From positions 1 to 64,000 of IMG/VR virus record IMGVR_UViG_2703718833_000007: 64,000 nt of DNA; one strand, written 5' to 3'. This DNA is from a virus (taxonomy: Duplodnaviria > Heunggongvirae > Uroviricota > Caudoviricetes). Position numbers and translations under genes: made by a program. The notes under the pieces were generated by a model. The model ran no database searches. It saw only the letters and a program-made list of their open reading frames with translations, and was not told where the DNA came from. How positions within the stretch are numbered: the first letter of the stretch is position 1; the number at the start of each line of letters is the position of its first letter. Of the stretch, positions 2,556-64,000 are shown piece by piece.

Positions 2556-3971
2556 TTAAAAAGATGCGTTATTCTGATTGTTTCGTTGGTTAAAACGGCT
2601 TGTGCGATGATTCATTGACTGAATACACGCTGCGGCTGCGCGCGCCTGGTCGCATGGCAAGATATTACCGTTGTCATCAAACCGCTGGTAAACAGTTCCA
2701 GACTTACCATGACGGTTTTTTGACACAATGATTTCCATGTATTCGCGGGCAACAGACTGCTCGTCGTAATACCCATCGCGGTAAACCATGATTATTCTGT
2801 CGGCATCTTGCTCAAGGTTGCCGGAATCACGAAGATCAGAATTATTAGGGCGCTTGTTTGGTCGTTCCTCAACTCGTCGTGATAATTGCGCCAGCGCTAA
2901 CACTGGAACGCGCAATTCTTTCGCCATCATCTTCAACGACCATGACAATTGCCCAACAGCGAGATCATGACGTTCTGCCTTAGCCAGCTTCATCAACCCT
3001 ATGTAGTCAATCATTACCATACCCAGGTTGGGATGTTCCTGTTTCATCCGTTCCGTGGTGGCGCGTATTTCCTCAACCGTTAACTGCGACGCGTCAACGA
3101 TCCACACATCAAGATTAGCAAGTGCGCTCATACCCTGGCCGACATGCGCCCAACCCTCATCATCAAGTTTTACAGGATTGCGCAGGCAGTCAGTTGATAA
3201 ATTACCAGCGCCAGCGATAGCGCGTTCAGTCATCTGATCGAGTGACATTTCAAGCGTGAATAACAAAACGCCAACCCGCTGATCCTTGCTGCCAGGGTAA
3301 GGGCGTTCAGCAGCAGCGCGGGCAATTGCCAGCGCCAACGCAGATTTACCAGACCCAGGGCGTCCGGCGAGAAGCACCAGATCAGTAGCGTTAATGCCGC
3401 CTAACATTTCGTCGAGTGGTTCTATCCCTGTTTTGATGTTGTCAGAATTGACACCGCATTCCATGCGCTTACTTAAAACTTCCGTGTATTCCTGGACAGC
3501 ATCGCGCAACAGAACAGGGATAATCTTGTCTTTCGTTACCTTTAATTTTGAATACCGGGAATCAAAATCTTTCATCGTCTCTTTGACGACCTCAAGCGTC
3601 CCCGTCTCCAGTTTGTAGCGCATATCGTCGATGAGTTCCAACATCTGCCGCCGCTGGTGCTCTTCACGTAGTAGCTGTGCGTATCCCTTCAGGTTGGCAG
3701 CAGACGGGCACGATCTCGCTGTTTGCATTAGCGGTACGAAATTTTCATTACCAATCTCATCACCGACCAGCAATGCATCGATGAGATTCCTGTTTCTGGC
3801 TTGTGCCCGGATAATTTCAAAAGCCCGCTTATACAGCGGAATAGTGAACACTTCAGGATCAAGCGTAGCGAGAACATCTTGCGCGTTAGGGGTTAGGCCA
3901 CCTAACAGCAGCCCGCCGATAACTGACGCCTCACGTTCCTGCCGTAGTGAGTTTATTTGCTCAGTTACCAT
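2556..3971 (-). CDS. DnaB-family replicative DNA helicase
   Basis: 471 aa; Walker A GRPGSGKSALAL and DnaB C-terminal RecA-like domain motifs. Confidence 0.85.
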   Translation of the reverse strand: MVTEQINSLRQEREASVIGGLLLGGLTPNAQDVLATLDPEVFTIPLYKRAFEIIRAQARNRNLIDALLVGDEIGNENFVPLMQTARSCPSAANLKGYAQLLREEHQRRQMLELIDDMRYKLETGTLEVVKETMKDFDSRYSKLKVTKDKIIPVLLRDAVQEYTEVLSKRMECGVNSDNIKTGIEPLDEMLGGINATDLVLLAGRPGSGKSALALAIARAAAERPYPGSKDQRVGVLLFTLEMSLDQMTERAIAGAGNLSTDCLRNPVKLDDEGWAHVGQGMSALANLDVWIVDASQLTVEEIRATTERMKQEHPNLGMVMIDYIGLMKLAKAERHDLAVGQLSWSLKMMAKELRVPVLALAQLSRRVEERPNKRPNNSDLRDSGNLEQDADRIIMVYRDGYYDEQSVAREYMEIIVSKNRHGKSGTVYQRFDDNGNILPCDQARAAAACIQSMNHRTSRFNQRNNQNNASF

Positions 3972-4510
3972 TATGTTATTGCCTCCGGTTTACAAAATGT
4001 ATTTTCATCTGGTGAAGAAATACCGTGGTTATGGTGATAGCCATATTTTATTTCAGCTTCACGCCGCGCCCTTACAGCATCATCATATGATTTCCCCCAG
4101 TACACGCTTATAGTTTTTCTTTTGCCATTTTTACTCCATACTACTATTCTTGATCTCCATACTTTTTTTATTTTATCCCAATAAACGCCAACGCAACCGC
4201 TAGTGTTATCTATTGGCTTCTTTGCGTTTCTTGCATTTTCCCACGCATAAACAAGTCTTAAATTTTCAATTCTATCGTCACCTGGCATGTGATTTATATG
4301 ATCAATCATCATTCCATCAGGGATAGGGCCATTAAACATTTCCCAAACAATTCTATGTCTAAGAAAATATTTTTTATTAATAACTATTTGCCAATAACCT
4401 ATGCTCCCCCTACATCCTGCCACATCACCGGGTTTTATTCTTGTTTTGTATCTGTGTTCTTTCCAGTACAAAACACCATTGCTATAAATAAATAATTTAC
4501 TCCATTCCAT
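3971..4510 (-). CDS. HNH endonuclease with AP2 domain (homing-endonuclease-like), copy 1
   Basis: HNH_3-like DHINH...N motif, AP2-like segment, C-terminal KYGYHHNHG; start taken at internal ATG 4510 to avoid 160-nt overlap. Confidence 0.75.
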   Translation of the reverse strand: MEWSKLFIYSNGVLYWKEHRYKTRIKPGDVAGCRGSIGYWQIVINKKYFLRHRIVWEMFNGPIPDGMMIDHINHMPGDDRIENLRLVYAWENARNAKKPIDNTSGCVGVYWDKIKKVWRSRIVVWSKNGKRKTISVYWGKSYDDAVRARREAEIKYGYHHNHGISSPDENTFCKPEAIT

Positions 4511-5624
4511 AATTAGACATCCCAGGTCTATACACAAAGCGCCCAATCTCGCCATATTCAGGACTGTAAATGATAACAGCAGCGCAACGTTGCGAACGCC
4601 ACCCACCACGGGCCGAATAAGCATCTTTAGCAGCCAATGTTCCGTGATGTTCGACAACGCCTAACGATGTTTCAATAACAGATTGATGGTGTAAATGGCC
4701 TACATGCGCGTAAACATATTTAGATTTACCGAAATCATCCCGCCAGTCAGAAACACAGGCAGCAAGTAAATTTTCTGGCTTTTTGATAGTGTGCCCGTGG
4801 TGGTAAGCAAGGAATGTTTTGCCGTACTGTGTGTGGTGGACGATGGCAGGGGACACGTCAACCTTTACGCGCGGTTCATCTTCGTAAAAAGCCGACAGCG
4901 CAGCACGTAGCCAGATCATTCCTGACTGGTCGTGATTGCCTTCAAGTACCTGTATTTCTACCTCCTTGTGATTCAGCAACATTTTCCCAACAGCACGCCT
5001 TACAGATCTGATAACCACATAAACAAGTTTTGCGTAGCGTGAATCGCAATCCAGGACGTGATTGCTTGATGGCGTAACTGGCAACAGCCCGTCAGAATGC
5101 GCCACATCACCGCCTAACAACAATACAGCTTTTTCAGACATCGGCGCAGCGCCTACCGCGTAGTCAAAGAAGTCATTTAACACGCGCTCAGCGATCCCAG
5201 TGTCGTAGCTCTCGCCGCATTCAGCTTTATGGGCAAGTGCCCCGATATGCAAATCAAATACCGGATAAAGGGCAAGACTTTTTTGAAAATCAATTTCAGG
5301 CACTGGCACGGCCTCCGCGCGTGGTATTTCCTCCGTGAATGCGTCGCGGGCAGCTTCCATTAGCCTTTCCATTTCATCACGGTCACGGGCAGTTTTAATC
5401 CAGCGCATGACCGTATTCCCAGCCTTATCGACAAGAACAGATTCACCAGTAACGCCAAAACCCGGCGCGCGGCGTGTTGATAACAAACCGCGTTTCGCCA
5501 GCTTTGCGCCCAGACGCTCGACGTTGCGTTTTGACATGCCGTATTTTTCAGCGATCTGCTTGTACGTTAAACCGTTGTTATATTCAGCGATCAATTGTTC
5601 ATCGCTGATTTTTCTTTGCGACAT
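4497..5624 (-). CDS. HTH domain fused to calcineurin-like metallophosphoesterase
   Basis: N-terminal HTH (LTYKQIAEKYGMSKRNVERL); phosphoesterase motifs DLHIG, GGDVAHSD, GNHD, GHLHH. Confidence 0.55.
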   Translation of the reverse strand: MSQRKISDEQLIAEYNNGLTYKQIAEKYGMSKRNVERLGAKLAKRGLLSTRRAPGFGVTGESVLVDKAGNTVMRWIKTARDRDEMERLMEAARDAFTEEIPRAEAVPVPEIDFQKSLALYPVFDLHIGALAHKAECGESYDTGIAERVLNDFFDYAVGAAPMSEKAVLLLGGDVAHSDGLLPVTPSSNHVLDCDSRYAKLVYVVIRSVRRAVGKMLLNHKEVEIQVLEGNHDQSGMIWLRAALSAFYEDEPRVKVDVSPAIVHHTQYGKTFLAYHHGHTIKKPENLLAACVSDWRDDFGKSKYVYAHVGHLHHQSVIETSLGVVEHHGTLAAKDAYSARGGWRSQRCAAVIIYSPEYGEIGRFVYRPGMSNYGME

Positions 5625-12984: not shown

Positions 12985-13605
12985 ATGAACGACATCAAAA
13001 CAGCTTATTCACTCGGCAGCGAAGGCATGTTAATCACTCGCTACACTGAAGACGCAAGTTTTCATGAAGTAGAAATTAAAGATTATCACGAAGTATTGAA
13101 AGATATGGAAGCTGGCAAGTATGACGCTGATTTGAATCTGGCGTTACAGATTGTTGATATTGTGATGGATGCAAACATCCGCGATTATGTGTCTTTAAGT
13201 GCGGAAGAAAAAACATCGGTAGCTCGCTATGTCTTCTGTCTTGCTTTCGTAAAACGCATGGAAGAGGAATATGGGCGCGTACCAGTGCCGGAAGAGATTG
13301 ACCCGCTTGCGTTCGGAAGCGCTGTTATCTTCCCGCTTGATGAAAACCGTATGGGAAGCATTGCGCTGTATTCTATGCGTGGCATGATGAAAAAACTCTT
13401 TGAAGTTAAGGTGATGCAGAAATGTATTGATGAAGGCCACAAAGAGGAAGAAATAAAATTTTTCATGCCATTGTTTTACGGTGAAATGGTCGGAAATGAT
13501 ATGCGTGCAAATGATCTAGGTGTACAGGCGGCTATTGCGGTGCTTAATGATGCACGGAAAAATTCACAGCCAATGCCGGAACCGGAAAAACGTGTACTGC
13601 ATTAA
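12985..13605 (+). CDS. hypothetical protein (206 aa)
   Basis: Operon-context ORF. Confidence 0.45.
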   Translation: MNDIKTAYSLGSEGMLITRYTEDASFHEVEIKDYHEVLKDMEAGKYDADLNLALQIVDIVMDANIRDYVSLSAEEKTSVARYVFCLAFVKRMEEEYGRVPVPEEIDPLAFGSAVIFPLDENRMGSIALYSMRGMMKKLFEVKVMQKCIDEGHKEEEIKFFMPLFYGEMVGNDMRANDLGVQAAIAVLNDARKNSQPMPEPEKRVLH

Positions 13606-13703
13606 CAGCGTGATTGCGATCACATGAACATACATTTTGTGTTGTGATTGCATATCCGTTTTGTAAACTTAAATTAAAGGTTTACATCGCGGAGGAAAGT
13701 AAG

Positions 13704-13922
13704 ATGGAACGTGAATACATGCTTTATTGCGTTGAGGGTGGCGTAGGTAGCGATGCCTACGTCGCCGGGAAAAGCTATCCAGCAGATGAAGTGCTTTCTA
13801 ATATGCACTTCCGTGAAAATGAAAACCAGGTGTCTGTGTGGAAGCGATGCGTTGATGGTATTGAAGTCGTTAGCCTTGAAAGATATTTGGGTAAATTCGA
13901 CTACGGATTAATTGAGGCTTAA
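13704..13922 (+). CDS. hypothetical protein (72 aa)
   Basis: Start at ATG 13704 with GGAGGAAAG RBS. Confidence 0.4.
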   Translation: MEREYMLYCVEGGVGSDAYVAGKSYPADEVLSNMHFRENENQVSVWKRCVDGIEVVSLERYLGKFDYGLIEA

Positions 13923-14020
13923 CTATGGACGAATCATTGCTATTCATGTGCATTTGCTGGGGTTTTATTGCCTTATGCCTGTTTATCAGGTGGTTTATTG
14001 AATACCACATGAGGTGATAT

Positions 14021-14215
14021 ATGGAACAGAAAACTGATTATAGAATACCTGACAACCTGAAATTGGTTGGTATTGGTTTTGGTTGTCGTTTTGTATCTGA
14101 CGTAAACGGGGCTATTTATTTAGTGCGCATCATTGATGGCGTTCAGCATATAAGAAGGCTAGGACTTTATATCAAAGCATTCAGGAGAGGTTATTTGAAA
14201 ACTCATGAAATTTAA
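14021..14215 (+). CDS. hypothetical protein (64 aa)
   Basis: Operon-context ORF. Confidence 0.35.
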   Translation: MEQKTDYRIPDNLKLVGIGFGCRFVSDVNGAIYLVRIIDGVQHIRRLGLYIKAFRRGYLKTHEI

Positions 14216-14408
14216 ACAGTATAAAGAATGGAAGATTCCAGAAGAAGCAACAAAGGCAGCGCCAGGAAGTTTTTCTGGCGTTTACTTTTATATGGGTGGT
14301 AAATGGTATTTCGGCAGCAGGCCGGATCACTATTATCAAGAAGTATGCAAATCTCACACCTGGGATATTAATGAACGCGTGCAAGGTGGTGTAATAGACG
14401 AGGTTTAA
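14205..14408 (+). CDS. hypothetical protein (67 aa)
   Basis: Operon-context ORF. Confidence 0.35.
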   Translation: MKFKQYKEWKIPEEATKAAPGSFSGVYFYMGGKWYFGSRPDHYYQEVCKSHTWDINERVQGGVIDEV

Positions 14409-14409
14409 A

Positions 14410-14646
14410 ATGGTTAGGGCTTTTTTAAAGTGGTTAGGTGAGTGGCTTTTGGCTACGCTTTTCGTTTTTTTGACGTTCATTGCAGTAATGATCATCTTTC
14501 TTCTTTCCATGATGTTCCTTACATGGTCAGTACCAGAGTTTATGGATATTGGTAAGGTTCTTGATTTCGCTCGTGCTTTGTTGCTTTGTAGTGCATTTAT
14601 TGGTTTTTGCAGGACTGTTTCGCCTGATTGGGATGATGAATGGTGA
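14410..14646 (+). CDS. small membrane protein (78 aa, two predicted TM helices)
   Basis: Two hydrophobic segments. Confidence 0.4.
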   Translation: MVRAFLKWLGEWLLATLFVFLTFIAVMIIFLLSMMFLTWSVPEFMDIGKVLDFARALLLCSAFIGFCRTVSPDWDDEW

Positions 14647-14650
14647 TCCT

Positions 14651-14884
14651 ATGGCCTTGTTCAATATGTCAGAGCCGCAATTTAACGCCGTAAAGACTGC
14701 CGCCCGCGCAGCGCTTTCGGCCTGCAAAGCGGAAGTAGAGAAAAACGGCTACAGCGATAAAGCTACGCGGCTGATATTAGAAAAGCATTATCGCAAGGTC
14801 GCCCCACTAATCAGCATTGAGCGCTTTGTGTGGTTGGTGGGGTATTTAAACAACCGTTGGGGAACGGAACAGGATTATTTCTAA
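14651..14884 (+). CDS. hypothetical protein (77 aa)
   Basis: Start at ATG 14651 with GGTGA RBS. Confidence 0.4.
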   Translation: MALFNMSEPQFNAVKTAARAALSACKAEVEKNGYSDKATRLILEKHYRKVAPLISIERFVWLVGYLNNRWGTEQDYF

Positions 14885-14893
14885 GGGGGCGTA

Positions 14894-15433
14894 ATGAAAA
14901 ATGATTTTGGAGGCAGCCACACTCCTAAGGAAATTAAAGATCTATGGCAGACGCCTAAACCAGTTTTCAGAGGAATGGATCGGGAATTTGAATTCGTCGC
15001 GGATGTGGCGGCAAACAAGGCAAACGCGCTAGTTCCGCGATATATAACCGAAGAAATGGACACGTTGCATTATCCGTGGGGAGCGGTGGCAATGCCTGGC
15101 GAGTATGTCTGGCTTAATCCGCCATATTCTAAACCGGGGCCATTCGTTGAGAAGGCGGCATTAGAACATCAACGAAATCACATTGGCTGTGTAATGCTGT
15201 TGCCCGCTGACATTTCTGTTAGCTGGTTCATGAACGGCGTGGAGACGGCAAACGAATGCCGATTAATCACGCGCGGGCGTCTGGCGTTTATCAATGCTGA
15301 GACAGGGAAACCAGCAAGCGGAAACAACAAAGGCAGCTTGTTTTTGATCTGGCATCCACGGTGCAGACATGAATGTATTTTTACGCAGATAACACGTAAA
15401 GAGCTATATGCAAGAGGTGCAGATAATGACTAG
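14894..15433 (+). CDS. phage DNA N6-adenine methyltransferase (Dam-like)
   Basis: 179 aa; WLNPPYS matches the (D/N)PPY catalytic motif of N6-adenine methyltransferases; AAGGGGG RBS. Confidence 0.7.
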   Translation: MKNDFGGSHTPKEIKDLWQTPKPVFRGMDREFEFVADVAANKANALVPRYITEEMDTLHYPWGAVAMPGEYVWLNPPYSKPGPFVEKAALEHQRNHIGCVMLLPADISVSWFMNGVETANECRLITRGRLAFINAETGKPASGNNKGSLFLIWHPRCRHECIFTQITRKELYARGADND

Positions 15434-15854
15434 TGCGGCAGATTTACTACGAATCGCAGCGGAAACAATAGAGCAAAGGGGTAAACAAAACGGATACGAC
15501 AGAAAAGAGGAAAAATCAGCGCCAAAAATAGCCACTATTTACAACGCTAAGAAGGGTACAAATTTAACCCCGCTTGATGTATGGGATCTGTTGATTTGTC
15601 TCAAGGAGGCGCGTTTAGAGGCCATTTTGGTAAATGGTTCTGACCCTACTGATACTTTGGTTGACTTGATTAGCTACAGCGCACTAAAAGCTGAGCAGAT
15701 ATTAAGCGATCATGAGGAAGAGCAAAAGAAAAAACAGTTCACTGCTCTTAATCCTCAATGTGGTTGTATTTCAACTCGGCTTGATTTGAGTTTTGACAGA
15801 TCTGAAGCTATTCGCGATAAGAGGTATGACCCAAATGAAAAAGGTGGCAATTGA
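15426..15854 (+). CDS. hypothetical protein (142 aa)
   Basis: Start at ATG 15426 with AAGAGGTG RBS. Confidence 0.4.
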   Translation: MTSAADLLRIAAETIEQRGKQNGYDRKEEKSAPKIATIYNAKKGTNLTPLDVWDLLICLKEARLEAILVNGSDPTDTLVDLISYSALKAEQILSDHEEEQKKKQFTALNPQCGCISTRLDLSFDRSEAIRDKRYDPNEKGGN

Positions 15855-16338
15855 CAGGTTATTAGCCTGCGTTTATGTCGCCGTTTTCGTGATCATCAAC
15901 CTTATTGTTAACCATTGCGGCCCGTGGGTAATTCCGATCACCACGGTAGCCGCTGTGTGTGTCAATATGATGATCCGTGACTTCTTGCTGTATGACGGCG
16001 GCTTGAAATGGTCTGCTACAACATGCGCCGCCGCTGGCGCAATCACGGTAATGATAAATTACGATGCTGGAATGGTAGCGATCGCGTCATTCGTTGCGGT
16101 TGTTTCCGGTGCGCTTATATCTGGAGGTGTTTACCGGGTTTTGCCTGGTGATTTCGATTCTAAGCGCTGGCCTGCAAACATAGCTTCAGCCATCGGGGAT
16201 GCGTTAATTTTCCCGACGCTATCGTTTATGGCGTTTATGCCGGAAATATCAGCGATGCAGTTTATCTCAAAAATGGCAGCGGTAACGGTGATCACTATCA
16301 TCATGCGCCGCTATTTCACGTTTGAGGGTAGAAAATGA
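15835..16338 (+). CDS. integral membrane protein, possible YhhQ-like queuosine-precursor transporter family
   Basis: 167 aa, multiple TM helices; segment VYRVLPG..SKRWPANIASAIGDALIF resembles a conserved region of YhhQ-family transporters as recalled; tentative. Confidence 0.3.
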   Translation: MKKVAIDRLLACVYVAVFVIINLIVNHCGPWVIPITTVAAVCVNMMIRDFLLYDGGLKWSATTCAAAGAITVMINYDAGMVAIASFVAVVSGALISGGVYRVLPGDFDSKRWPANIASAIGDALIFPTLSFMAFMPEISAMQFISKMAAVTVITIIMRRYFTFEGRK

Positions 16339-16862
16339 ATTGGGATGATTATTTTATATACAATCCGGACACAGGTAAGTTGTACTGGAAATATAGAAAT
16401 GACATAGAAGAATCAAGGCGTAAACAATGGAATGCGTGTAATGCTGGTCATGAGGTTGGACATATTGGCGGAAGCGGTGGGTGTCTTAATACAGCGCTTA
16501 CCGTTGGCGGAAAGCGTTATAATTTAAAAGTACATAGAATATGTTACGAGATGTACTATGGGCCAATACCTGAAGGTAAGGAGGTTGATCATATAAATCA
16601 CGTTAAAACAGATAATCGAGCCGTCAATCTTGGATTAAAAGACCATAAAGATAATATGCGCAACATGTCTTTAATGGTAAACAATACCAGTGGGTGCGCT
16701 GGTATCCATAAAAATAAACATGGTAAATGGGTTGTTAGAATCGGTGGAGGCAAAAGAGGTAATAGAATTTATATAGGGTGTTTTTCTGATATCAATGACG
16801 CAATAAAAGCTAGGCGCGACGCTGAAAGAAAGTATGGCTATCATGAAAATCACGGCAAATAG
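16335..16862 (+). CDS. HNH endonuclease with AP2 domain, copy 2
   Basis: VDHINH...N HNH_3 motif, AP2-like segment, C-terminal KYGYHENHGK. Confidence 0.8.
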   Translation: MNWDDYFIYNPDTGKLYWKYRNDIEESRRKQWNACNAGHEVGHIGGSGGCLNTALTVGGKRYNLKVHRICYEMYYGPIPEGKEVDHINHVKTDNRAVNLGLKDHKDNMRNMSLMVNNTSGCAGIHKNKHGKWVVRIGGGKRGNRIYIGCFSDINDAIKARRDAERKYGYHENHGK

Positions 16863-17121
16863 AACAACCACGCCACCGCCGCGCGGCTTTGCCCGTGCTG
16901 TATTCCTGGCTAACGACCGGGCCATCAATCGTGCTACGCTCAACCGCGTTTTACCGGACTGAAATTTACAAAATGGCGTCATTGCGTGATGTGGATCACA
17001 TAATGGCGCTTTTCACCTTGTTCTGACGTATCCGTTTTGTATACTTCAAACAAGCAAAATGCTCTTTAAAAATCCGGCAGCGCTGAAATGCGTAGAAATC
17101 ACCTGAAAAGGAGAGAGCATT

Positions 17122-17298
17122 ATGCCTTTTGATAATTACCAATGGCATGACGACTATGAACGAGAAAGCGTCATGCGTGCAATGTGCAATGTATGCAGCA
17201 CGAAGAAAGGAGACTGCAACGAGTGCAACGAATGTTTAGATCATTGGCTAAGGGCCGGACACGCCGAAAGGCGGAGCGAAACAGAAAATCAAAAATAA
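17122..17298 (+). CDS. small Cys-rich protein (58 aa)
   Basis: CNVC...CNEC pattern; AAAAGGAGAG RBS; below track cutoff. Confidence 0.3.
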   Translation: MPFDNYQWHDDYERESVMRAMCNVCSTKKGDCNECNECLDHWLRAGHAERRSETENQK

Positions 17299-17312
17299 TC
17301 GGGGTGATTTTT

Positions 17313-17918
17313 ATGCAGAACCCTAAAAAACCCATAAGACGCCGTTGCAAATGCTGCGGCGTTTTTTTTGAACCTAAATATCACAATCAAACGTGGTGCA
17401 GCGATGAATGTCTGGAAGAACTGAAGTTTGATCAGCTATGCCGCGATCGTGAAAAGGCTATGAAGGCTATGGAGCGGAAGAAACGCCGCGATAGCCAGCG
17501 TGAGGAACGCAACCGGAAGCGGAAGCAGTTAAATCCGCGTAGTTATTGGTTAAAGCAGGCGCAAAACGTGTTTAACGCATATATTCGCGAACGTGACGCA
17601 GGACAGCCGTGTATATCTTGCGGGACTTATTATTATGAGCAATGCGGAGCAGATGCGGGGCATTACAGGACGGTAGCAGCAGCTGGACACCTTCGATTTA
17701 ACGAGGATAACGTAAACCTACAATGTCGACATTGCAATCAGGTATTAGACGGAAACATAGAGGCATATCGTCCGGCACTGATTCGAAAAATTGGCCTTGC
17801 CAGGGTGGAGGCGTTGGAGAACAACAACGAAACCCATAAATGGACGATCGAAGAATGCAAGGAGATCATTAAAGTTTACCAGGCGAAATTGGACGCCCTA
17901 AGGAGAAAGGCGGCATGA
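17313..17918 (+). CDS. ninG: NinG/Rap-family recombination-associated protein
   Basis: 201 aa; multiple Cys/His clusters; recalled similarity to lambda NinG; GGGGTGA RBS. Confidence 0.65.
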   Translation: MQNPKKPIRRRCKCCGVFFEPKYHNQTWCSDECLEELKFDQLCRDREKAMKAMERKKRRDSQREERNRKRKQLNPRSYWLKQAQNVFNAYIRERDAGQPCISCGTYYYEQCGADAGHYRTVAAAGHLRFNEDNVNLQCRHCNQVLDGNIEAYRPALIRKIGLARVEALENNNETHKWTIEECKEIIKVYQAKLDALRRKAA

Positions 17919-18322
17919 ATGAATATACATTTAGCCTACCTTACCCGCCATCGAATAATAGGTATTACCGGCATTCACGAGGTTTTCATTATATCAGTAA
18001 AGTGGGGAAAGAATACCGGGAACAGGTAAGAGACATCATCGAGCTATTAAATTTAAACATCAACCTATCTTGCCGACTGGCAATTACCATTCATGCCGCG
18101 CCGCCGGATAACCGGATAAGAGATCTGGATAATATCACCAAATGCCTTTTTGATAGCCTTACTTACGCCGGATTCTGGACCGACGACGGGCAGATCGATT
18201 CTATAAAAATTGTTCGCTGCCGGAAGGTAAAAGGCGGGCGCTTGTTTATTAAGATCCGCGAACGCGGCGACCTACTACCGGATATTGACGAATACGAGAC
18301 TAATATGTGGGGTGAGCAATGA
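17915..18322 (+). CDS. rusA: RusA-family Holliday junction resolvase
   Basis: 135 aa; RusA-like pattern; AAGGAG RBS. Confidence 0.7.
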   Translation: MNEYTFSLPYPPSNNRYYRHSRGFHYISKVGKEYREQVRDIIELLNLNINLSCRLAITIHAAPPDNRIRDLDNITKCLFDSLTYAGFWTDDGQIDSIKIVRCRKVKGGRLFIKIRERGDLLPDIDEYETNMWGEQ

Positions 18323-18501
18323 AAAACGAAGTTAAAGATCTGCAAATAGATATTCAGTGCGATGAGCATGATTTAGCTACAGTCAGAAAAATCCAGGCTT
18401 TTCATATGCGAGAATTGCTTGCATTGAAAGAGCTTGAGAGGAAGTTAGTCCAGTCTATTTCTGATCGTAAACGCCTTATTGCTCGTTACGGGGGCAAATA
18501 A
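18319..18501 (+). CDS. hypothetical protein (60 aa)
   Basis: Coupled ORF. Confidence 0.35.
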   Translation: MKNEVKDLQIDIQCDEHDLATVRKIQAFHMRELLALKELERKLVQSISDRKRLIARYGGK

Positions 18502-19223
18502 TGAATCTGGAGTCAATTCTTAAATTCCACTTCCCAAAATCACCGCATTTGTCAGATGAAAGTCGTGGCACGTCACCGGACGCGCTTAATACTACGGATG
18601 CGCTAACTGCCGCTGGTATGGCGCAATCGCGCGTAGAGCTTGGTTATAGCGCTTTTTTAGGGAAGATGGAACTATCACAAGCCGAAAAGCACAGGGCCGT
18701 AGTTTTGCTTACAGAGCGTTTAAGAGCTATGGCAAAAGATTATAAATACGTTATGGAACTGGACGAGGTGCGACGAAATGATCTCATTATTCTTGTTGCC
18801 GTTTTCGCATTTCGGGATTATTGCCAGAGTGCCGCGACGGAAAAAACTTGTATGGAGTGCGGCGGATATAAATTTACGTTTGACGAGTATGGGGAAAAAC
18901 ACCTTTGCAAAAAATGCAAGGGGCATGGGAAAGTTCTTAATCATTGCAAACAATGCAAGGGCCGTGGAGAAGTGCCTGATAAAGCAGCCAGCGAAGCGGC
19001 GGAAATGCCCGTGTTCAAAACGTGCCAGCATTGCGGCGGGCGCGGGTACTCGCGTTTCCCTGTAGATCTTGTCCGGCAGGCGGTTAATCAGCTTGTCTTT
19101 CCTGTAAGCCGATCAACATGGTGGAAGAAATACCGTGCTTTCTATGAAGACGCCATTGCTGAATTGTTCAAAGAAGAGGCGCGGGCTGATAACGAAATTA
19201 AACGAGTGACGCGGGGTGAATGA
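18501..19223 (+). CDS. DnaJ-type zinc-finger protein in late-antiterminator (Q) position
   Basis: 240 aa; four CxxCxGxG repeats; located after nin-like genes where lambdoid Q lies. Confidence 0.4.
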   Translation: MNLESILKFHFPKSPHLSDESRGTSPDALNTTDALTAAGMAQSRVELGYSAFLGKMELSQAEKHRAVVLLTERLRAMAKDYKYVMELDEVRRNDLIILVAVFAFRDYCQSAATEKTCMECGGYKFTFDEYGEKHLCKKCKGHGKVLNHCKQCKGRGEVPDKAASEAAEMPVFKTCQHCGGRGYSRFPVDLVRQAVNQLVFPVSRSTWWKKYRAFYEDAIAELFKEEARADNEIKRVTRGE

Positions 19224-25750: not shown

Positions 25751-26335
25751 ATGGCTAAGGCTAAAGGCATTAAGTTGCCTCAATTCAAAGTCCCGCTCTT
25801 TGAGCATACAACAGTTTTCTTTTGCCCGACCCGCGACATGTTCTATGAATTTTGCGAAAAGGCAGGGATCCCAATCGAACCTGATTTCGAACTGGCAGGA
25901 GGATTAACACTTACTTGCACTGGCGAGAAAGGCGGTAACTTCTACGTGATCGCAGTATTCGACAATGAGTTAGGAACTCTGGTGCATGAAGCGGCCCACA
26001 CTACGTTTCACGTATTAAGTGATGTAGGCGTAGTGGCGACCACTGATCCCAGCCATCCGGCAAACGAGACTTATGCTTACATGGTAGGCCGCATCTTTGA
26101 TGCTTTCTTCCCCATCCTGGCGGAATCAAATGAAGCACAGGTGGCAGCAATGCAGGCAGCTGAAGTCGTAGAGAAGGCATTAGAACAGGCAGAAAAGGCG
26201 ACTGATGCAGCAGAGCAGGCAGTAGAGCAGGCAGAGGAGCCGAAAGAAGAGAAAAAACCAGCTAAGAAAGGCAAACGTAAGCCTAAAGCAAAAGAGGCGC
26301 TTGTACCGCGTATTATGAGCTTTAAACGAGGCTGA
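25751..26335 (+). CDS. hypothetical protein with HExxH motif and Lys/Ala/Glu-rich C-terminal tail
   Basis: 194 aa; LVHEAAHTTFH contains HEAAH; basic low-complexity tail. Confidence 0.4.
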   Translation: MAKAKGIKLPQFKVPLFEHTTVFFCPTRDMFYEFCEKAGIPIEPDFELAGGLTLTCTGEKGGNFYVIAVFDNELGTLVHEAAHTTFHVLSDVGVVATTDPSHPANETYAYMVGRIFDAFFPILAESNEAQVAAMQAAEVVEKALEQAEKATDAAEQAVEQAEEPKEEKKPAKKGKRKPKAKEALVPRIMSFKRG

Positions 26336-53275: not shown

Positions 53276-53649
53276 TGTACCAAATAGTGACCAAATTTTA
53301 AAAAACAAAACTAAATCATACATAACACACTGTTTTTAAAGAGATAATATTTAACATTAACCATTCCAGACAGGACTGGTGAGTAAGTCCAGGGTATTGA
53401 AGTTGTGCGTAATCATTGAGATCCCGTTATTTTTATCAATTTTTGTTGCTATCCGATCGCAAAAAAGCCACGTCATATGATCAGATAATTCTGATAATGA
53501 TAGACGCTATTTAACACTTCACACGGTTTGTATACGGATAAGCATTTTGCTTTTTGTATTCAATTTAGACAGAATTTTATTAATCATTTCAGGGTAATGG
53601 GGTGATGAGATGTTGCGTAACAGGGCCAGAAGGCTAGACTACAAAATAA

Positions 53650-54654
<1,005 letters not shown>

Positions 54655-54700
54655 CAAAAGCAATTTTTCCGGCTGTCTGTATACAAAAACGCCGCAAAGT

Positions 54701-54714
54701 TTGAGCGAAGTCAA
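54701..54714 (+). promoter_or_regulatory. FNR-box upstream of fnrS
   Basis: TTGAGCGAAGTCAA matches TTGAT-N4-ATCAA consensus, centred about 42 bp upstream of predicted sRNA 5-prime end. Confidence 0.5.
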
Positions 54715-54749
54715 TAAACTCTCTACCCATTCAGGGCAATATCTCTCTT

Positions 54750-54871
54750 GCAGGTGAATGCAACGTCAAGCGATGGGCGTTGCGCTCCATATTGTCTTAC
54801 TTCCTTTTTTGAATTACTGCATAGCACAATTGATTCGTACGACGCCGACTTTGATGAGTCGGCTTTTTTTT
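54750..54871 (+). ncRNA. fnrS: FnrS small regulatory RNA
   Basis: Between zntB and dbpA; begins GCAGGTGAATGCAACGTC and ends with GCCGACT...AGTCGGC hairpin plus T8; matches recalled FnrS locus. Confidence 0.6.
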
Positions 54872-54928
54872 GCCTGTTATTTATCAGCGTCTACCCTTTA
54901 AGAGTCCACCCAATGACCAGAGGGAAAT

Positions 54929-55102
54929 ATGACGACACTTATTTATTTGCAAATTCCTGTCCCTGAACCGATTCCTGGCGATCCTGTTCCAGTGCCCGAT
55001 CCGATCCCTCGCCCGCAACCCATGCCTGACCCACCACCCGATGAAGAACCGATTAAATTGTCGCATCGTGAGCGTAGATCTGCGAGGATACGCGCCTGCT
55101 AA
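54929..55102 (+). CDS. small proline-rich ORF (57 aa)
   Basis: AGAGGG RBS; MTTLIYLQIPVPEPIPGDPVPVPDPIPRPQPMPDPPPDEEPIKLSHRERRSARIRAC; coding status unverified. Confidence 0.3.
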   Translation: MTTLIYLQIPVPEPIPGDPVPVPDPIPRPQPMPDPPPDEEPIKLSHRERRSARIRAC

Positions 55103-55131
55103 CTTTGCGTCGATGACCACGAGAATAGATT

Positions 55132-56505
55132 GTGACCGCTTTTTCTACCCTGAATGTTTTGCCTCCCGCCCAACTCACGAACCTTAATGAGTTGGGTTAT
55201 TTAACCATGACGCCGGTGCAGGCCGCCGCGCTTCCGGCGATCCTTGCCGGAAAAGATGTTCGCGTGCAGGCGAAAACCGGCAGCGGCAAAACGGCGGCTT
55301 TTGGCCTCGGCTTGTTACAGCAAATTGATGCGTCGCTATTTCAAACCCAGGCTTTAGTGCTGTGTCCTACGCGTGAACTGGCGGATCAGGTGGCAGGTGA
55401 ATTGCGTCGGCTGGCGCGTTTTCTGCCAAATACCAAAATTTTGACGTTGTGCGGTGGTCAACCGTTCGGTATGCAGCGTGATTCGTTGCAACATGCGCCG
55501 CATATTATCGTGGCAACGCCGGGGCGTTTGCTGGATCACCTGCAAAAAGGCACGGTATCACTGGATGCGTTGAATACGCTGGTGATGGATGAGGCCGACC
55601 GCATGCTGGATATGGGATTTAGCGATGCCATTGATGATGTCATCCGTTTTGCGCCTGCATCTCGACAGACGCTTCTGTTTTCGGCAACCTGGCCGGAAGC
55701 CATCGCTGCAATCAGCGGACGAGTGCAACGCGATCCTTTGGCGATTGAAATTGACTCAACAGATGCTTTGCCACCCATTGAACAACAATTTTATGAGACA
55801 TCCAGCAAAGGCAAAATTCCTCTGTTGCAACGGTTATTAAGCTTGCATCAGCCATCCTCTTGCGTGGTGTTTTGCAATACCAAAAAAGATTGCCAGGCTG
55901 TCTGCGACGCGCTGAATGAAGTAGGGCAAAGTGCATTGTCATTACACGGCGATTTGGAGCAACGCGATCGCGATCAGACCCTGGTACGTTTTGCTAACGG
56001 TAGCGCCCGTGTACTGGTCGCGACTGATGTTGCTGCGCGTGGTCTGGATATTAAATCGCTTGAGCTGGTGGTGAACTTTGAGCTGGCGTGGGACCCTGAA
56101 GTTCATGTACATCGCATCGGTCGTACAGCTCGTGCAGGAAATAGCGGTCTGGCGATCAGTTTCTGTGCTCCGGAAGAAGCACAGCGGGCCAATATCATTT
56201 CTGACATGTTGCAGATAAAACTTAACTGGCAAACGCCGCCAGCTAATAGTTCCATTGCGACGCTGGAAGCAGAAATGGCAACGTTGTGTATCGATGGCGG
56301 GAAAAAAGCCAAAATGCGCCCGGGTGATGTATTAGGTGCACTGACAGGAGATATCGGGCTTGATGGCGCAGATATTGGCAAAATCGCCGTGCATCCGGCG
56401 CATGTCTATGTCGCGGTCCGTCAGGCTGTTGCTCATAAAGCATGGAAACAGTTACAGGGCGGGAAGATTAAAGGAAAAACGTGCCGGGTGCGGTTATTAA
56501 AATAA
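55132..56505 (+). CDS. dbpA: ATP-dependent RNA helicase DbpA
   Basis: 457 aa; DEAD-box motifs (GSGKT, DEAD, SAT, HRIGRTAR) and C-terminal RNA-binding domain; GTG start. Confidence 0.9.
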   Translation: MTAFSTLNVLPPAQLTNLNELGYLTMTPVQAAALPAILAGKDVRVQAKTGSGKTAAFGLGLLQQIDASLFQTQALVLCPTRELADQVAGELRRLARFLPNTKILTLCGGQPFGMQRDSLQHAPHIIVATPGRLLDHLQKGTVSLDALNTLVMDEADRMLDMGFSDAIDDVIRFAPASRQTLLFSATWPEAIAAISGRVQRDPLAIEIDSTDALPPIEQQFYETSSKGKIPLLQRLLSLHQPSSCVVFCNTKKDCQAVCDALNEVGQSALSLHGDLEQRDRDQTLVRFANGSARVLVATDVAARGLDIKSLELVVNFELAWDPEVHVHRIGRTARAGNSGLAISFCAPEEAQRANIISDMLQIKLNWQTPPANSSIATLEAEMATLCIDGGKKAKMRPGDVLGALTGDIGLDGADIGKIAVHPAHVYVAVRQAVAHKAWKQLQGGKIKGKTCRVRLLK

Positions 56506-56633
56506 TGAAATGTTGAATTGCCGGGTGCAAGAGTAAACATCTTATTCGGGATTGCCGGATGCGACGCTGGCCGCGTCTTATCCGGCCTCCATAAGAGTAG
56601 CCCGATACGCTTGCGCATCGGGCGCTATCCTGG

Positions 56634-57569
56634 TTATTTCACTTCAACCACATTCAGCCGTAACTCATCCAACTGATTTTCATCTTCTTCTGGCTGCCAG
56701 CACGCCGGTTGTAGTGGGATCTCTTCGCGATCAAACGCCAGATCACCCCCGTTAACCACTTCAGAACCGTGGGTGATGCCTTTGAAATCGAACAGGTTGG
56801 TATCGCACAGATGCGACGGCACCACATTCTGCATCGCGCTGAACATCGTCTCGATACGCCCTGGATAACGTTTATCCCAGTCACGCAACATGTCAGCAAT
56901 CACCTGACGTTGCAGGTTAGGCTGTGAACCGCACAGGTTGCACGGAATAATCGGGAACGCTTTTGCATCGGCAAATCGCTGAATATCTTTCTCGCGGCAG
57001 TAGGCCAGCGGACGAATAACGATATGTTTGCCATCATCGCTCATCAGTTTCGGAGGCATACCTTTCATCTTACCGCCGTAGAACATATTTAAGAACAACG
57101 TTTGCAGGATATCGTCACGATGGTGACCCAACGCGATCTTCGTCGCCCCCAGTTCCGTTGCGGTACGATAAAGGATACCGCGACGAAGGCGAGAACACAG
57201 TGAGCAAGTGGTTTTGCCCTCTGGAATCTTCTCTTTCACGATACCGTAAGTATTCTCTTCAACAATCTTGTACTCAACGCCCAGCTTTTCAAGATACTCG
57301 GGCAGAACGTGTTCCGGGAAGCCCGGTTGCTTTTGATCGAGGTTAACAGCCACCAGCGAAAAATTGATTGGCGCGCTTTGCTGCAAATTGCGCAGAATCT
57401 CCAGCATGGTATAGCTGTCTTTACCCCCGGAGAGGCAAACCATGATGCGATCGCCTTCTTCAATCATATTGAAGTCAGCAATGGCTTCGCCCACGTTACG
57501 ACGCAGACGTTTTTGTAATTTGTTCAGATTGTATTGTTCTTTCTTTGTAATTTGTTGATTTTCTTGCAT
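56634..57569 (-). CDS. ttcA: tRNA 2-thiocytidine biosynthesis protein TtcA
   Basis: 311 aa; PP-loop SGGKDS motif and Cys clusters. Confidence 0.9.
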
Positions 57570-57620
57570 TATTTCAGTTCTCTGGTACTAAATGGGGCAA
57601 ATTGGGGGCAAACTTTGCAA

Positions 57621-58856
57621 CTACGATAACCGCGCATTCAACATGGCTATCTGTTCGTCGTTCATGTCATCAATCCACATACCGTAAATTTCATACACCA
57701 TCTGCGCAGTTTCATGCCCCATTTGGCTGGCTATAAATGCCGGGTTCGCTCCTGCCGTCAACAGCCAGCAGGCAAAAGTATGCCGCGTATGGTACGGATT
57801 ACGGCGGCGAATACCAGCACGTTTTACTGCTGCATTCCACCTTGCCCCCAAACTGCTTACCGAGTAATAAGGTTTTTGTTTTCCGTTACACACCCTGGGC
57901 ATGAAAACAAAATGCAGTTTTTGCTTTTCGGTTCTGCCGTACTCCCGATGATAAAAGGTGATTTCGCTTTTGCGATGATGCCCGGTCAGTTTGTATTGCT
58001 CCTTCAGTGCTTCAAGAGCAGGCTGCAGTAGTGTTACTGTTCGGATCCCGGCATTTGTTTTTGGGGGACCGAACATATCAAGTATCGTCAGGTTTCTTCT
58101 GACATTCACTATTCCCTTTTCGAGATCCACATCCTCCCACGCCAGAGCTGCCAGTTCCCCGTGACGAAGTCCTGAGTAAACGGCAAATTTCCACAAGTTC
58201 TGGCTCTGTCCTTTTTCACTTTCCATTAATGCATTGAATTCTGTTTTAGATAACGGATCAGGCTTTATTCTGTTTCGCTGTAATTTTTTTACTCCTTCAA
58301 ATGGTTTGGTTGATATAAATCCCGACTGATACGCAAAACGCAACAGCGAACAGAGCAGGGCGATATAGTTATCAACTGTGCGCACGGTTCTTCCTTTTTT
58401 GTTGGATCTTGGATTATCCAGGTAAAGCGTTTCTCCATGCAGCAGTTCATTCCGGTAGTTTAAGATATCGCTATAACGAATATGTGATATCGGGGTACTT
58501 TCACAAATTATTATTCTGAGTGTTTTTAATTGTGATTTTGTTTTCTTCATTGTGTATGTTGTTAACTCTGTCTCTTTAATTTTTGTCCAGATATCACAAA
58601 GCTCTCCGAACGTTTTTATGACTCTCGTTGTCACCATTTTTGCCCCAGTGCTGGACTGGGGAAAACGTCTTAAATACTCAAATTCACCGGAGTTTATTTC
58701 ATGAACTATCAGCGCTCTTAAATTTCCGGCCTTTTTAATATTACTGTTTGTAATCTCCCAGCCTTTTAATGTTTCCCGACATCGTTTTCCTCGAAACATG
58801 AACCAGATGCGAATGTATCTACCTCTAATCTCGACACCTGTTGGTAATTTAGACAT
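57621..58856 (-). CDS. intR: Rac prophage tyrosine integrase
   Basis: 411 aa; tyrosine recombinase C-terminal motifs (R...HxxR...Y). Confidence 0.9.
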   Translation of the reverse strand: MSKLPTGVEIRGRYIRIWFMFRGKRCRETLKGWEITNSNIKKAGNLRALIVHEINSGEFEYLRRFPQSSTGAKMVTTRVIKTFGELCDIWTKIKETELTTYTMKKTKSQLKTLRIIICESTPISHIRYSDILNYRNELLHGETLYLDNPRSNKKGRTVRTVDNYIALLCSLLRFAYQSGFISTKPFEGVKKLQRNRIKPDPLSKTEFNALMESEKGQSQNLWKFAVYSGLRHGELAALAWEDVDLEKGIVNVRRNLTILDMFGPPKTNAGIRTVTLLQPALEALKEQYKLTGHHRKSEITFYHREYGRTEKQKLHFVFMPRVCNGKQKPYYSVSSLGARWNAAVKRAGIRRRNPYHTRHTFACWLLTAGANPAFIASQMGHETAQMVYEIYGMWIDDMNDEQIAMLNARLS

Positions 58857-58857
58857 A

Positions 58858-59073
58858 TCATGAGTCTTTGATAAACTGATTTATCTTTGGATAGTTGTAC
58901 CAGATAATCCCTCGTTTGCTGTCTGGCTTACCTAAAGGAGATACTCGTTTGAAGTGGAAGCCCTCCACCCAACAGTTCTGGCGGTATGCTTCAATTTGTC
59001 TGGCCCCCAGACCAGTGCGAAGCATCAGGCCGTATTCAACCATCCACTCTTCATTAAAGATTACTTGTGCCAT
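58858..59073 (-). CDS. xisR: Rac excisionase
   Basis: 71 aa from internal Met [10 protein letters not shown]; directly upstream of intR. Confidence 0.75.
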
Positions 59074-59151
59074 CGCATCACCTCTGGCAGGCGCCAATGT
59101 TAGACTGAAATTGACGCCCGATGTTGATTATTAATAATAAGCTATGAAGTT

Positions 59152-59361
59152 TTAATTTGAATACAATGCAATTCTCGAGGACTGAAGTTTCTCGCAATTA
59201 AAATTTATCAGTTTTACTTTCTGCTCTCTGGAAACGCCTGCTTCTTTTTTACCTGAGAGCATTTTTTCGCATTCTGATTTCGTTAGTTTAGATTTTGAAT
59301 ATCTTGTCCAGTTAGTAGGAGTGCCACCTTCCTTTTCAATAGTGGCGGTAATTTTATACAT
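59152..59361 (-). CDS. rcbA: Rac small protein RcbA-like
   Basis: Track ORF 93 aa; likely 69 aa from MYKITATIEK; assignment from recalled Rac gene order. Confidence 0.5.
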   Translation of the reverse strand: MYKITATIEKEGGTPTNWTRYSKSKLTKSECEKMLSGKKEAGVSREQKVKLINFNCEKLQSSRIALYSN

Positions 59362-59548
59362 GAACACCTCCATTATTATTTCCAGTGGTTCGTTTATTCC
59401 ATCTTTCGAGTGCTTCTTTTTCACCTCCACCATAACCGGTTCGGGATTCGCATCCGTTACACTTCGCTCGGTAATATCCTGAAATGGCTTTCACCGTTAC
59501 TGATGGACAACCACAAAATGGACATGGTTTAACATTGTCATATCTCAT
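59354..59548 (-). CDS. ralR: RalR / Lar (restriction alleviation protein; type I toxin)
   Basis: 64 aa from MRYDNVKPCPFCGC; CxxC...CxxC zinc-ribbon. Confidence 0.7.
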   Translation of the reverse strand: MRYDNVKPCPFCGCPSVTVKAISGYYRAKCNGCESRTGYGGGEKEALERWNKRTTGNNNGGVHV

Positions 59549-59604
59549 AATTTTTCTCATAAAAAATATTTCAAGTTGGCGGTGCATTACACCGCCAGGC
59601 TGAA

Positions 59605-60414
59605 TTATTCCTCTGAATTATCGATTACACTGTATTCCCCGGTTAATACAGAGGAATCTGCAGGATCGATTGTCAGTGGTTCCTTTTCATCCATTGATAC
59701 TGCACGCTGGATCTCAATTGATACGGGCAGATATTTGAACAGGCGACGAATAGCCGTTTTCTTTGCCATTTCTTCCCAGTGAGTTACCCACGGCCCGTTA
59801 TTACCAGCTTTACTCAGGCTGCGCACCAGCTCAATCTGTTTGCGCGTCATAACTTCAAACTGAGTACCTCCGTCTTTCAGTCTTGCGACAGCATAGACGT
59901 GGGTAACCGGGGCATCTTCGTTTTCTCCCGGGCGGTGTATTAACTTTTCATCAAGGCCAAATTCGAAGCTAAACTCGTCACCTTCACGGACAACACGGGC
60001 TGACAGGCTGGCGATTTGACCAGAACGGCGAGCCAGATCAATCATGCCGCGATAGCCAATGATTAGCTGAACGTTCTTTTTACCGCTCTTTTCGTTTTTA
60101 TTACCAAAAGGCAGTAAATATGCATGACCGAGGGCGCTACCTGGCTCAAGTCCGAGCTGTGAACACTGTACGATCGCACTGACAAAACTCATAGTGTCAC
60201 AGTTTCCTAACGCCGGAACTTTACGAATTTCTGTGGTGGCGATACGGATCATACGTTCAGCCGTCATATGGCGTGGAAGAGCTGCTGCCAGTTGCTCTTT
60301 CATTGATGGCTGGTTAATAAAACTAATCACGTCGCTATTTTTAACTGCTGCTGGTGCACGGTTTCCCTGAGTTTTTTGCAGATCGGTTTTTGCGATTGGT
60401 GGTTGCTTAGTCAT
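59605..60414 (-). CDS. recT: RecT single-strand annealing protein
   Basis: 269 aa from MTKQPPIAK; start overlaps recE stop. Confidence 0.9.
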
Positions 60415-63007: not shown

Positions 63008-63108
63008 TGTTTTTTAACCTCAACTCAGATTAAAATTCGTTTTGTTCAGTGAATGATCTTGCCGGATACACACTGTTCATAGCCTGCGCCATACGCAGGC
63101 TATTTCTT

Positions 63109-63384
63109 TCAGATTTCACCTTTTAATTTCATTGCAATTAGAGTTGCCAGAAATTCGGCTTTTTTTTCTGCGGGCAGATTCTTTCCGATATGCACCAGGC
63201 ACATTTTTTTGACACCTTCATCAAGTGTTTTTACGTTGCCTGATGGACCATCGATATCAACCACAGTGAATGGGGTTTCTTTATTTTCTGTTTTAATTAC
63301 GTAGCCAATGCGCTTTCCTTCCAGATTCACCTCGTGAACAATGTCATCGGTAGTTACAACAGTGGCTTCATAATTGGTAATCAT
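63109..63384 (-). CDS. racC: RacC
   Basis: 91 aa from MITNYEATVV. Confidence 0.7.
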   Translation of the reverse strand: MITNYEATVVTTDDIVHEVNLEGKRIGYVIKTENKETPFTVVDIDGPSGNVKTLDEGVKKMCLVHIGKNLPAEKKAEFLATLIAMKLKGEI

Positions 63385-63458
63385 GTTTTTCTCCTTAATT
63401 AAGGTTGAGCGAATACCTGCCATTTCTGGCATAAATTCAGTTTCGAATAGTCAATTAA

Positions 63459-63629
63459 TTAAAGTTCATGTGCCATCTGGTCTTTTTCGGCACAAGCTTC
63501 ACTGCAATATTTTCTCGGTTCGTCTTTTGATAAAATCCCGTGCATGAAGTGAAGCATTCTTTCAATAGCTTTGCTTTCTTCAACGTCTTTTTTGCAAAGG
63601 TGGTAAGCACATTTTATTTTCTTAGTCAT
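63459..63629 (-). CDS. ydaE: YdaE-like small Cys-rich protein (56 aa)
   Basis: [56 protein letters not shown]; below track cutoff. Confidence 0.55.
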   Translation of the reverse strand: MTKKIKCAYHLCKKDVEESKAIERMLHFMHGILSKDEPRKYCSEACAEKDQMAHEL

Positions 63630-63850
63630 CACCATGACTCCGCCTTTACAGGTAAACCATCACGACCGAGGAAGACTTTAATCATGCGGTCAGTAATGCA
63701 TGTTTTTGTGGTCAGGTTACGAATATATAGTTTTCGCTTTTTAATATTGTTTGCCGAGGCAATATATGTCCGGCCTTCATGAAGAACATAATCGCCAGGA
63801 GTCACACACTGACGTGGTATTTCATCAGTTCCGAAGTGATGTGCAATCAT
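63629..63850 (-). CDS. kilR: KilR (Rac killing protein, cell-division inhibitor)
   Basis: 73 aa from [10 protein letters not shown]. Confidence 0.7.
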
Positions 63851-64000
63851 AATTATCTCCATTTTTACAAATGAACTTTGTTGATGCGGTGCCTGGTGCC
63901 TCCAGGTGACTGCAACCAGTTAACAATTACAGTCGGCTTTCCCACCCAAACCAATAAGGACTAACATGACTTTTAACTGTGCCACGTGCGCTTAGCCGCA

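Follow-up and report, generated by a model that had tools for sequence, protein, structure and literature searches.

Does a temperate coliphage that carries a DNA adenine methyltransferase also manipulate the supply of 7-deazaguanine precursors, and if so, for which nucleic acid? The question is raised by a stretch of 64,000 nucleotides (positions 1 to 64,000 of the IMG/VR virus record IMGVR_UViG_2703718833_000007; hereafter, the window), an Escherichia coli chromosome segment that contains a temperate prophage of the mEp021-like type (mEpimmI group). In this prophage, the gene for a Dam-type N6-adenine methyltransferase is followed two genes later by a gene for a membrane protein. The original prediction held that a segment of this protein resembles the YhhQ family of queuosine (Q)-precursor transporters, and that the phage might manipulate 7-deazaguanine supply alongside DNA methylation, with modification of DNA or tRNA as an anti-restriction strategy. 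Here, we report evidence that the membrane protein is related to YhhQ, that the prophage has no recognizable gene for 7-deazaguanine DNA modification, and that the transporter probably acts on its own.

Family assignment of the membrane protein

The membrane-protein gene at 15835..16338 (+) encodes a short QPTR/YhhQ (VUT, PF02592) family protein of 167 residues with six transmembrane (TM) helices, which bears out the prediction of a multi-TM protein two genes after Dam. The mechanically called open reading frame (ORF) spans 15793-16338 (+); translation probably begins at the ATG at 15835, because the sequence AAGAGG lies 10 nt upstream and the match to phrog_4899 begins at that residue. The homologue in phage mEp021 is annotated as a "putative membrane protein, 6 TM".

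A Pfam scan of the protein returned nothing at E<=0.1, and the gathering score of Vut_1 (27.2 bits) was not reached. A rescan of the protein within an alignment of its homologues gave no Pfam match at E<=0.001, and NCBIfam gave no match. BLASTP against gp41 of phage CAjan was not significant, nor was phmmer against E. coli YhhQ (E=0.18). When a shallow alignment of six sequences was compared with YhhQ by hhalign, the result was again not significant, and only a deep alignment succeeded.

Profile and transitive comparisons were positive. Using tblastn, proteins with 27-35% identity were found in T1-like coliphages, Pectobacterium phage PEAT2, Acinetobacter phage AB3P2, and others; several of these relatives are annotated "VUT family protein", and those of PEAT2 and AB3P2 pass the Pfam Vut_1 threshold with 38-39 bits. 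An HMMER scan of 1.84 billion representative proteins yielded 259 homologues, and PF02592 (Vut_1) was matched by 66 of the 72 full-length homologues that were aligned. A profile hidden Markov model (HMM) of 74 members outside the protein's own clade gave the window protein 117.7 bits over its full length (E=1.3e-35), compared with 55.0 bits for CAjan gp41 and 31.2 bits for E. coli YhhQ. The comparison of the family with E. coli YhhQ by hhalign gave a probability of 94% (E=1.2e-7, 141 columns). The segment SAIGDALIFPTLSF, which includes the family-invariant D122, aligns with GNVSDTLAFFFIAF of YhhQ and is probably the segment that had been noted as YhhQ-like. These positive profile, transitive, and hhalign tests indicate that the noted resemblance is real, though remote; it is upheld by the profile and transitive evidence, but not by the protein's own Pfam Vut_1 scan. 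Judged from its sequence, then, the membrane protein falls, as a divergent member, within a phage-type branch of the QPTR/YhhQ family whose proteins are short (about 155-175 residues).

Longer architectures were also seen among the metagenome homologues. The proteins P0038, P0040, P0042, P0049, P0087, and P0089 have 295-340 residues and consist of an N-terminal short VUT region and an extension of ~140 residues with no Pfam match; the extension of P0087 corresponds to DUF5020, and the contig of P0038 is too short for its gene context to be informative.

Predicted fold, conserved residues, and selection

An AlphaFold2 (AF2) model of the membrane protein is all-helical with six helices (predicted local distance difference test [pLDDT] 93.2, predicted template modeling score [pTM] 0.86); a model derived from six sequences was poor (pLDDT 64.5) and was not used. 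The modeled fold is that of a substrate-capture transporter resembling the solitary S-components of energy-coupling factor (ECF) systems, which agrees with the classification of YhhQ in TCDB 2.A.88 as a solitary S-component-like transporter (PMC5372724). With Foldseek, no PDB entry matched at E<=0.001, and a search against BFVD gave weak matches (E 0.008-0.07) to viral models resembling a "vitamin uptake transporter". No solved structure was found for relatives of YhhQ.

E. coli YhhQ (COG1738, PF02592, TCDB 2.A.88), an importer of preQ0 and preQ1, is likewise a six-TM inner-membrane protein with a predicted S-component-like architecture, and the R-D, A-x-A-S, N, D, and K positions are shared by the two proteins. 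YhhQ has 221 residues as compared with 167 in the window protein, because its loops and extensions are missing from the latter, which, unlike YhhQ, is encoded by a prophage and has no Q-pathway neighbors. Members of similar length, also with six helices, are CAjan gp41 ("YhhQ", a putative preQ0 transporter of 159 residues) and the VUT proteins of PEAT2, AB3P2, and the T1-like phages. CAjan gp41 belongs to the same short phage-type branch, given that one profile scores both proteins. The genes of CAjan, PEAT2, AB3P2, and the T1-like phages lie in or beside dpdA/preQ0 clusters, whereas the window gene does not. The solitary ECF S-components RibU, FolT, ThiT, BioY, and BtuM show 7-15% identity to the window protein, with no relationship detected at the sequence level. 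There are no ECF module genes at the window locus, and E. coli K-12 is without ECF modules (PMC5372724).

The core polar residues of the family, N22, R48, D49, S85, N115, D122, and K146, are kept in the window protein, and G29, A82, A84, and F131 are additional family positions kept in its clade. A further set of positions is replaced in this clade, which consists of the mEp group, P0009, P0013, and L052. The replacements are D44N, H52L/F, D96S, S114A, S123A, G149A/S/T, and W153I/L/Y, and G150 is also replaced. The replaced positions are 76-97% conserved in DpdA-linked relatives, and D44, H52, D96, S114, S123, and W153 mark the difference between the window clade and the proteins of CAjan, PEAT2, AB3P2, and the T1-like phages.

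The transporter gene is present in all 45 of the mEp021-like relatives (45/45). It is under strong purifying selection, with a ratio of nonsynonymous to synonymous substitution rates (dN/dS) of 0.044 (38 alleles) versus 0.05-0.08 for Dam, NinG, and RusA. The low ratio and the presence of the gene in every relative demonstrate that it is functional and not a decaying relic.

Search for a 7-deazaguanine system in the prophage

Cui et al. 2023 (PMC10516641) take the presence of DpdA as the hallmark of DNA modification with 7-deazaguanine. Among the 494 six-frame ORFs of the window with at least 50 residues, no gene for DpdA, QueC, or another 7-deazaguanine protein was found. The best match in phmmer searches with five DpdA sequences had E=0.19, and that with a DpdA HMM had E=1.9. 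FolE, QueC, QueD, and QueE were likewise not found with the CAjan proteins as phmmer queries, the best value of E=0.036 being noise. When the unassigned early proteins were scanned with Pfam and PHROGs, no match resembling a tRNA-guanine transglycosylase (TGT) appeared, and there was no preQ1 riboswitch or other Rfam family near the genes.

The search was also negative in relatives. None of 46 related viral contigs showed DpdA, FolE, QueC, QueD, or QueE at a distance of up to 6 kb from the gene, and five metagenome loci of P0009 and P0013 (L054-L058) had no Q or 7-deazaguanine genes within 6-8 kb. The annotation of a related prophage by the Prokaryotic Genome Annotation Pipeline (PGAP) lists no preQ0-pathway proteins. 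In a tblastn search of 50,697 phage records with DpdA, no mEp phage was among the 60 matches listed; judging by the counts per organism, the remainder could include no more than two. Because DpdA is the signature of the modification and none is recognizable here, the idea that the phage uses 7-deazaguanine DNA modification against restriction is not supported; neither DpdA, FolE, QueC, QueD, or QueE nor a preQ1 riboswitch was found in the window.

DpdA beside the transporter gene in more distant relatives

Outside the mEp group, 12 distinct phages gave a match, and in at least 10 of them a DpdA homologue directly adjoins the transporter gene. The phages with an adjacent DpdA are PEAT2, AB3P2, Opt-719, Opt-79, Phleasolo, Sadiya, RCIP0319, ECO111 5-P, Tbat1_6, and LHE71, and the same adjacency was observed in two of the three metagenome representatives checked. 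The adjoining DpdA homologues (243-275 residues; 243-306 among all those seen) match each other with E=1e-39 to 1e-105 and CAjan DpdA with E=1e-5 to 1e-8; the family found here includes the DpdA of Salmonella phage 7-11. Moreover, a metagenome protein of 278 residues (P0101, L064:121-957) is a fusion of QueF and VUT, the QueF-like part scoring 30.5 bits (cut-off 27.3). The adjacency of DpdA and the QueF-VUT fusion tie the short branch as a whole to 7-deazaguanine metabolism, and all characterized QPTRs carry preQ0, preQ1, or queuine (q) (PMC11130926). The proposed link to queuosine precursors holds for the distant members of the branch, most of which adjoin DpdA; in the window, the gene has no such partner.

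The QueF-VUT fusion lies on a single 1-kb contig that is too short for context, and it might be an artefact of assembly or of a frameshift. In a phage-like contig of 128 kb, a short VUT homologue outside the mEp clade (P0018, L062:6001-6495) has no DpdA within 6 kb; its gene is located just after a DNA ligase gene, and genes for a SIR2-domain protein and an RNA ligase are 3-5 kb upstream.

Dam, DUF6378, and the variable slot

The first gene of the block, at 14894..15433 (+), encodes a phage N6-adenine DNA methyltransferase of 179 residues (Dam, PF05869/TIGR01712). It matches Pfam PF05869 in full length (residues 7-175, E=6.7e-52, 176 bits; cut-off 28.1), NCBIfam TIGR01712, "phage N-6-adenine-methyltransferase", with 142.1 bits (cut-off 97.05), and phrog_111 with E=1.5e-63, and it shares 97% identity with mEp021_30. 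The catalytic motif IV, (D/N)PP(Y/F), is represented by NPPY at residues 75-78, inside WLNPPYS (residues 73-79, bases 15110-15130), and the dN/dS of the gene is 0.055. The methyltransferase assignment made from the WLNPPYS motif is therefore confirmed. The phage orphan Dam methyltransferases (PF05869/TIGR01712) share with the window protein the full-length match above curated thresholds and the NPPY motif, and the window Dam, placed in the nin-like early region of a temperate coliphage, shows no notable difference from them. By its sequence, it is classed as an ordinary, already known type of phage orphan adenine methylase.

Between Dam and the transporter lies a gene for a DUF6378 protein of 148 residues (15408..15854 (+); PF19905, E=5.8e-8, 33.3 bits; matches to phrog_9871/474). 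Its ORF overlaps both the Dam stop and the transporter start, and start and stop codons overlap throughout Dam, DUF6378, the membrane protein, and the next gene. In every mEp021-like contig (45/45), and also in L054, a distant relative, DUF6378 was found between Dam and the transporter. Its conservation is lower than that of its neighbors (64-80% amino-acid identity among relatives), and the label "phosphofructokinase" that PHROGs attaches to the DUF6378 families is probably a propagated misannotation. For DUF6378, no relative with a solved structure and no informative literature were found.

The order ipe-like gene, Dam, DUF6378, VUT is the same in all 45 mEp021-like contigs (45/45), and variation begins after VUT. 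This position is occupied by Dcm in about 40 relatives and is empty in five; one contig, like the window, has an HNH endonuclease there. In the window, the gene is that of an HNH_3 endonuclease (16335..16862 (+); PF13392, E=3.2e-16; phrog_99), which has an ATGA start/stop overlap with the transporter gene and fills the slot of the Dcm C5-cytosine methyltransferase of about 40 of the 46 related phages. The substitution looks like a replacement of the homing-endonuclease type. A tblastn search for Dcm in the window was negative, and an N4/N6 methyltransferase is likewise absent; with HNH in the Dcm slot, the prophage thus has Dam but lacks Dcm and an N4/N6 methyltransferase. A second, related HNH_3 gene (phrog_99) is located at 3971-4657 (-) and also resembles AP2, with a score of 27.7 bits that stays below the cut-off of 33.3.

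A distant relative of the mEp lineage, whose genes are ~45-60% identical, retains Dam, DUF6378, VUT, and a Dcm-like gene. In an unrelated phage background (P0013, L052; 46-47% identical), the transporter gene is two genes from an N6_N4 methyltransferase and has no DpdA neighbor.

Prophage setting

The segment of bases 14400-17000 shares 88-91% identity with phages mEp554, mEp010, mEp515, mEp021, mEp044, mEp013, and MagusPhagus, and a 6-kb query (bases 13000-19000) is matched by 35 of 5,426 complete E. coli genomes. Phages of the mEp021 type are said to be prevalent in the human gut. From base 53,500 to base 64,000, the window consists of ordinary E. coli chromosome together with the Rac prophage; the host flank (53671-64000) contains zntB, the small RNA (sRNA) FnrS (54750-54867, 134.8 bits), dbpA, ttcA, intR of the Rac prophage, the RalA antitoxin sRNA (59177-59355, 225 bits), and recE. 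These flanking genes place the mEp021-like prophage between dgcM and zntB, ~4 kb from the Rac prophage. The prophage integrase is beyond the left end of the window.

A terminator-like hairpin with an 11-bp stem and a T run at 14258..14282 (+) forms the upstream border of the early transcription segment that contains Dam, DUF6378, and the transporter. After an offset of 2911 nt, it coincides in position with the predicted terminator TERM_3 (t3) of mEp021 (17171-17191), for which a nut/terminator map is available (PMC11893012). By position, the block sits between the equivalents of the mEp021 terminators t3 and t4/nutR2 and would thus belong to the rightward early operon that is antiterminated in an N-like fashion. 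From this location, expression during lytic development is likely. Directly 5' of Dam is the orthologue of mEp021 ipe ("inducer of pleiotropic effects", phrog_303; 14549-14884 (+)), which is conserved like Dam (dN/dS 0.055). A small ORF that precedes it (14410-14646) resembles a two-TM membrane peptide.

Discussion

We think it probable that the transporter is a functional, stand-alone importer of a 7-deazaguanine base, of uncertain substrate, that is not part of a DNA-modification system, with Dam working independently of it. During lytic growth, the membrane protein would import preQ0, preQ1, or queuine across the inner membrane. Since the phage is without DpdA and preQ0 synthesis genes, the imported precursor could only feed the Tgt/Q-tRNA pathway of the host. 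Dam, for its part, would methylate the phage DNA and plausibly protect it from restriction. A functional link between Dam and the transporter is not supported; their synteny is seen within a single phage lineage.

Several observations weigh against a stand-alone 7-deazaguanine importer. The window protein does not reach the Vut_1 threshold on its own, and PGAP annotates the orthologue in a related prophage as hypothetical. The window clade never adjoins DpdA and adjoins DNA methyltransferases dependent on S-adenosylmethionine. The positions replaced in the clade, among them D44, H52, and W153, are polar or aromatic and possible substrate binders, so that the substrate may differ. The fraction of NAU codons in the phage genes, 0.52, is uninformative, with no bias arguing for a benefit through Q-tRNA. 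E. coli makes preQ0 and preQ1 itself and has its own YhhQ, which leaves the benefit of an additional importer unclear. Finally, yhhQ of CAjan has been studied genetically, and its deletion left DNA modification unchanged (PMC7544227).

One could envision that the clade, although derived from 7-deazaguanine transporters, now moves a different small molecule, such as a purine-like base or a cofactor, or serves an unrelated membrane function, in either case acting together with Dam, DUF6378, and Dcm. This is a serious possibility, which we nevertheless doubt. The clade-specific replacement of conserved polar residues and the lost Pfam signal are consistent with it, as is the company of methyltransferases in place of DpdA in two unrelated backgrounds (mEp-like/L054 and L052/L055-L058); sub-families of differing specificity have been proposed (PMC5372724), and the strong purifying selection shows that the gene does something. 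Methyltransferase proximity within the mEp lineage is, however, explained by shared descent, the invariant core (N22, R48-D49, S85, N115, D122, and K146) is intact, all characterized family members transport a 7-deazaguanine base, and no data here point to another substrate. It seems unlikely to us that the mEp021-type clade is a re-purposed QPTR which, having lost its DpdA partner and conserved polar residues while staying under strong selection in the Dam-DUF6378-VUT-Dcm block of these common gut coliphages, imports another substrate for DNA or nucleotide modification, perhaps with DUF6378, or serves a cryptic transglycosylase other than DpdA.

The original view, that the transporter supplies 7-deazaguanine DNA modification alongside Dam as an anti-restriction measure, would call for an unrecognized phage transglycosylase or a Dpd system of the host, and we now hold it to be very unlikely. 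The tight association between DpdA and the wider gene family speaks for it, as does the location of the gene within a block of DNA-modification genes, and new DpdA subfamilies were overlooked until 2023 (PMC10516641). Against this, no window ORF of at least 50 residues matches DpdA, FolE, QueC, QueD, or QueE, no TGT-like match came from the Pfam and PHROGs scans of unassigned early proteins, and mEp phages do not appear among the 60 DpdA matches listed, with room for two at most. Prophage proteins of ~200 residues at 231-890, 12985-13605, and 25751-26335 are without assignment, but these are shorter than the DpdA homologues (243-306 residues). The protein might also be a small phage membrane protein that keeps an S-component-like helical bundle and transports nothing, acting for example in superinfection exclusion or in the timing of lysis. 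In favor of this, no short phage-type member has been shown to transport anything, matches to a helical-bundle fold are only moderately specific, and the CAjan yhhQ deletion had no phenotype. Full-length homology to a transporter family, the retention of invariant intramembrane polar residues, a dN/dS of 0.044, and the position of the gene within the operon for early DNA metabolism, outside the lysis and immunity regions, make such a role highly improbable.

Phage-encoded homologues of YhhQ/QPTR, including that of CAjan, are reportedly known already from the work of Hutinet in 2019; what is new is an unusually divergent, previously unannotated member in a context that lacks DpdA. The analysis places the proteins of the mEp021-like clade, whose present annotation is only "hypothetical" or "membrane protein", in the YhhQ/QPTR family. 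A transporter of the Q-precursor type has been under selection here without a DpdA or Que partner, and a YhhQ homologue alone should thus not be taken to predict 7-deazaguanine DNA modification. The residue changes specific to this clade provide concrete candidate positions for determinants of substrate specificity in the QPTR/YhhQ family.

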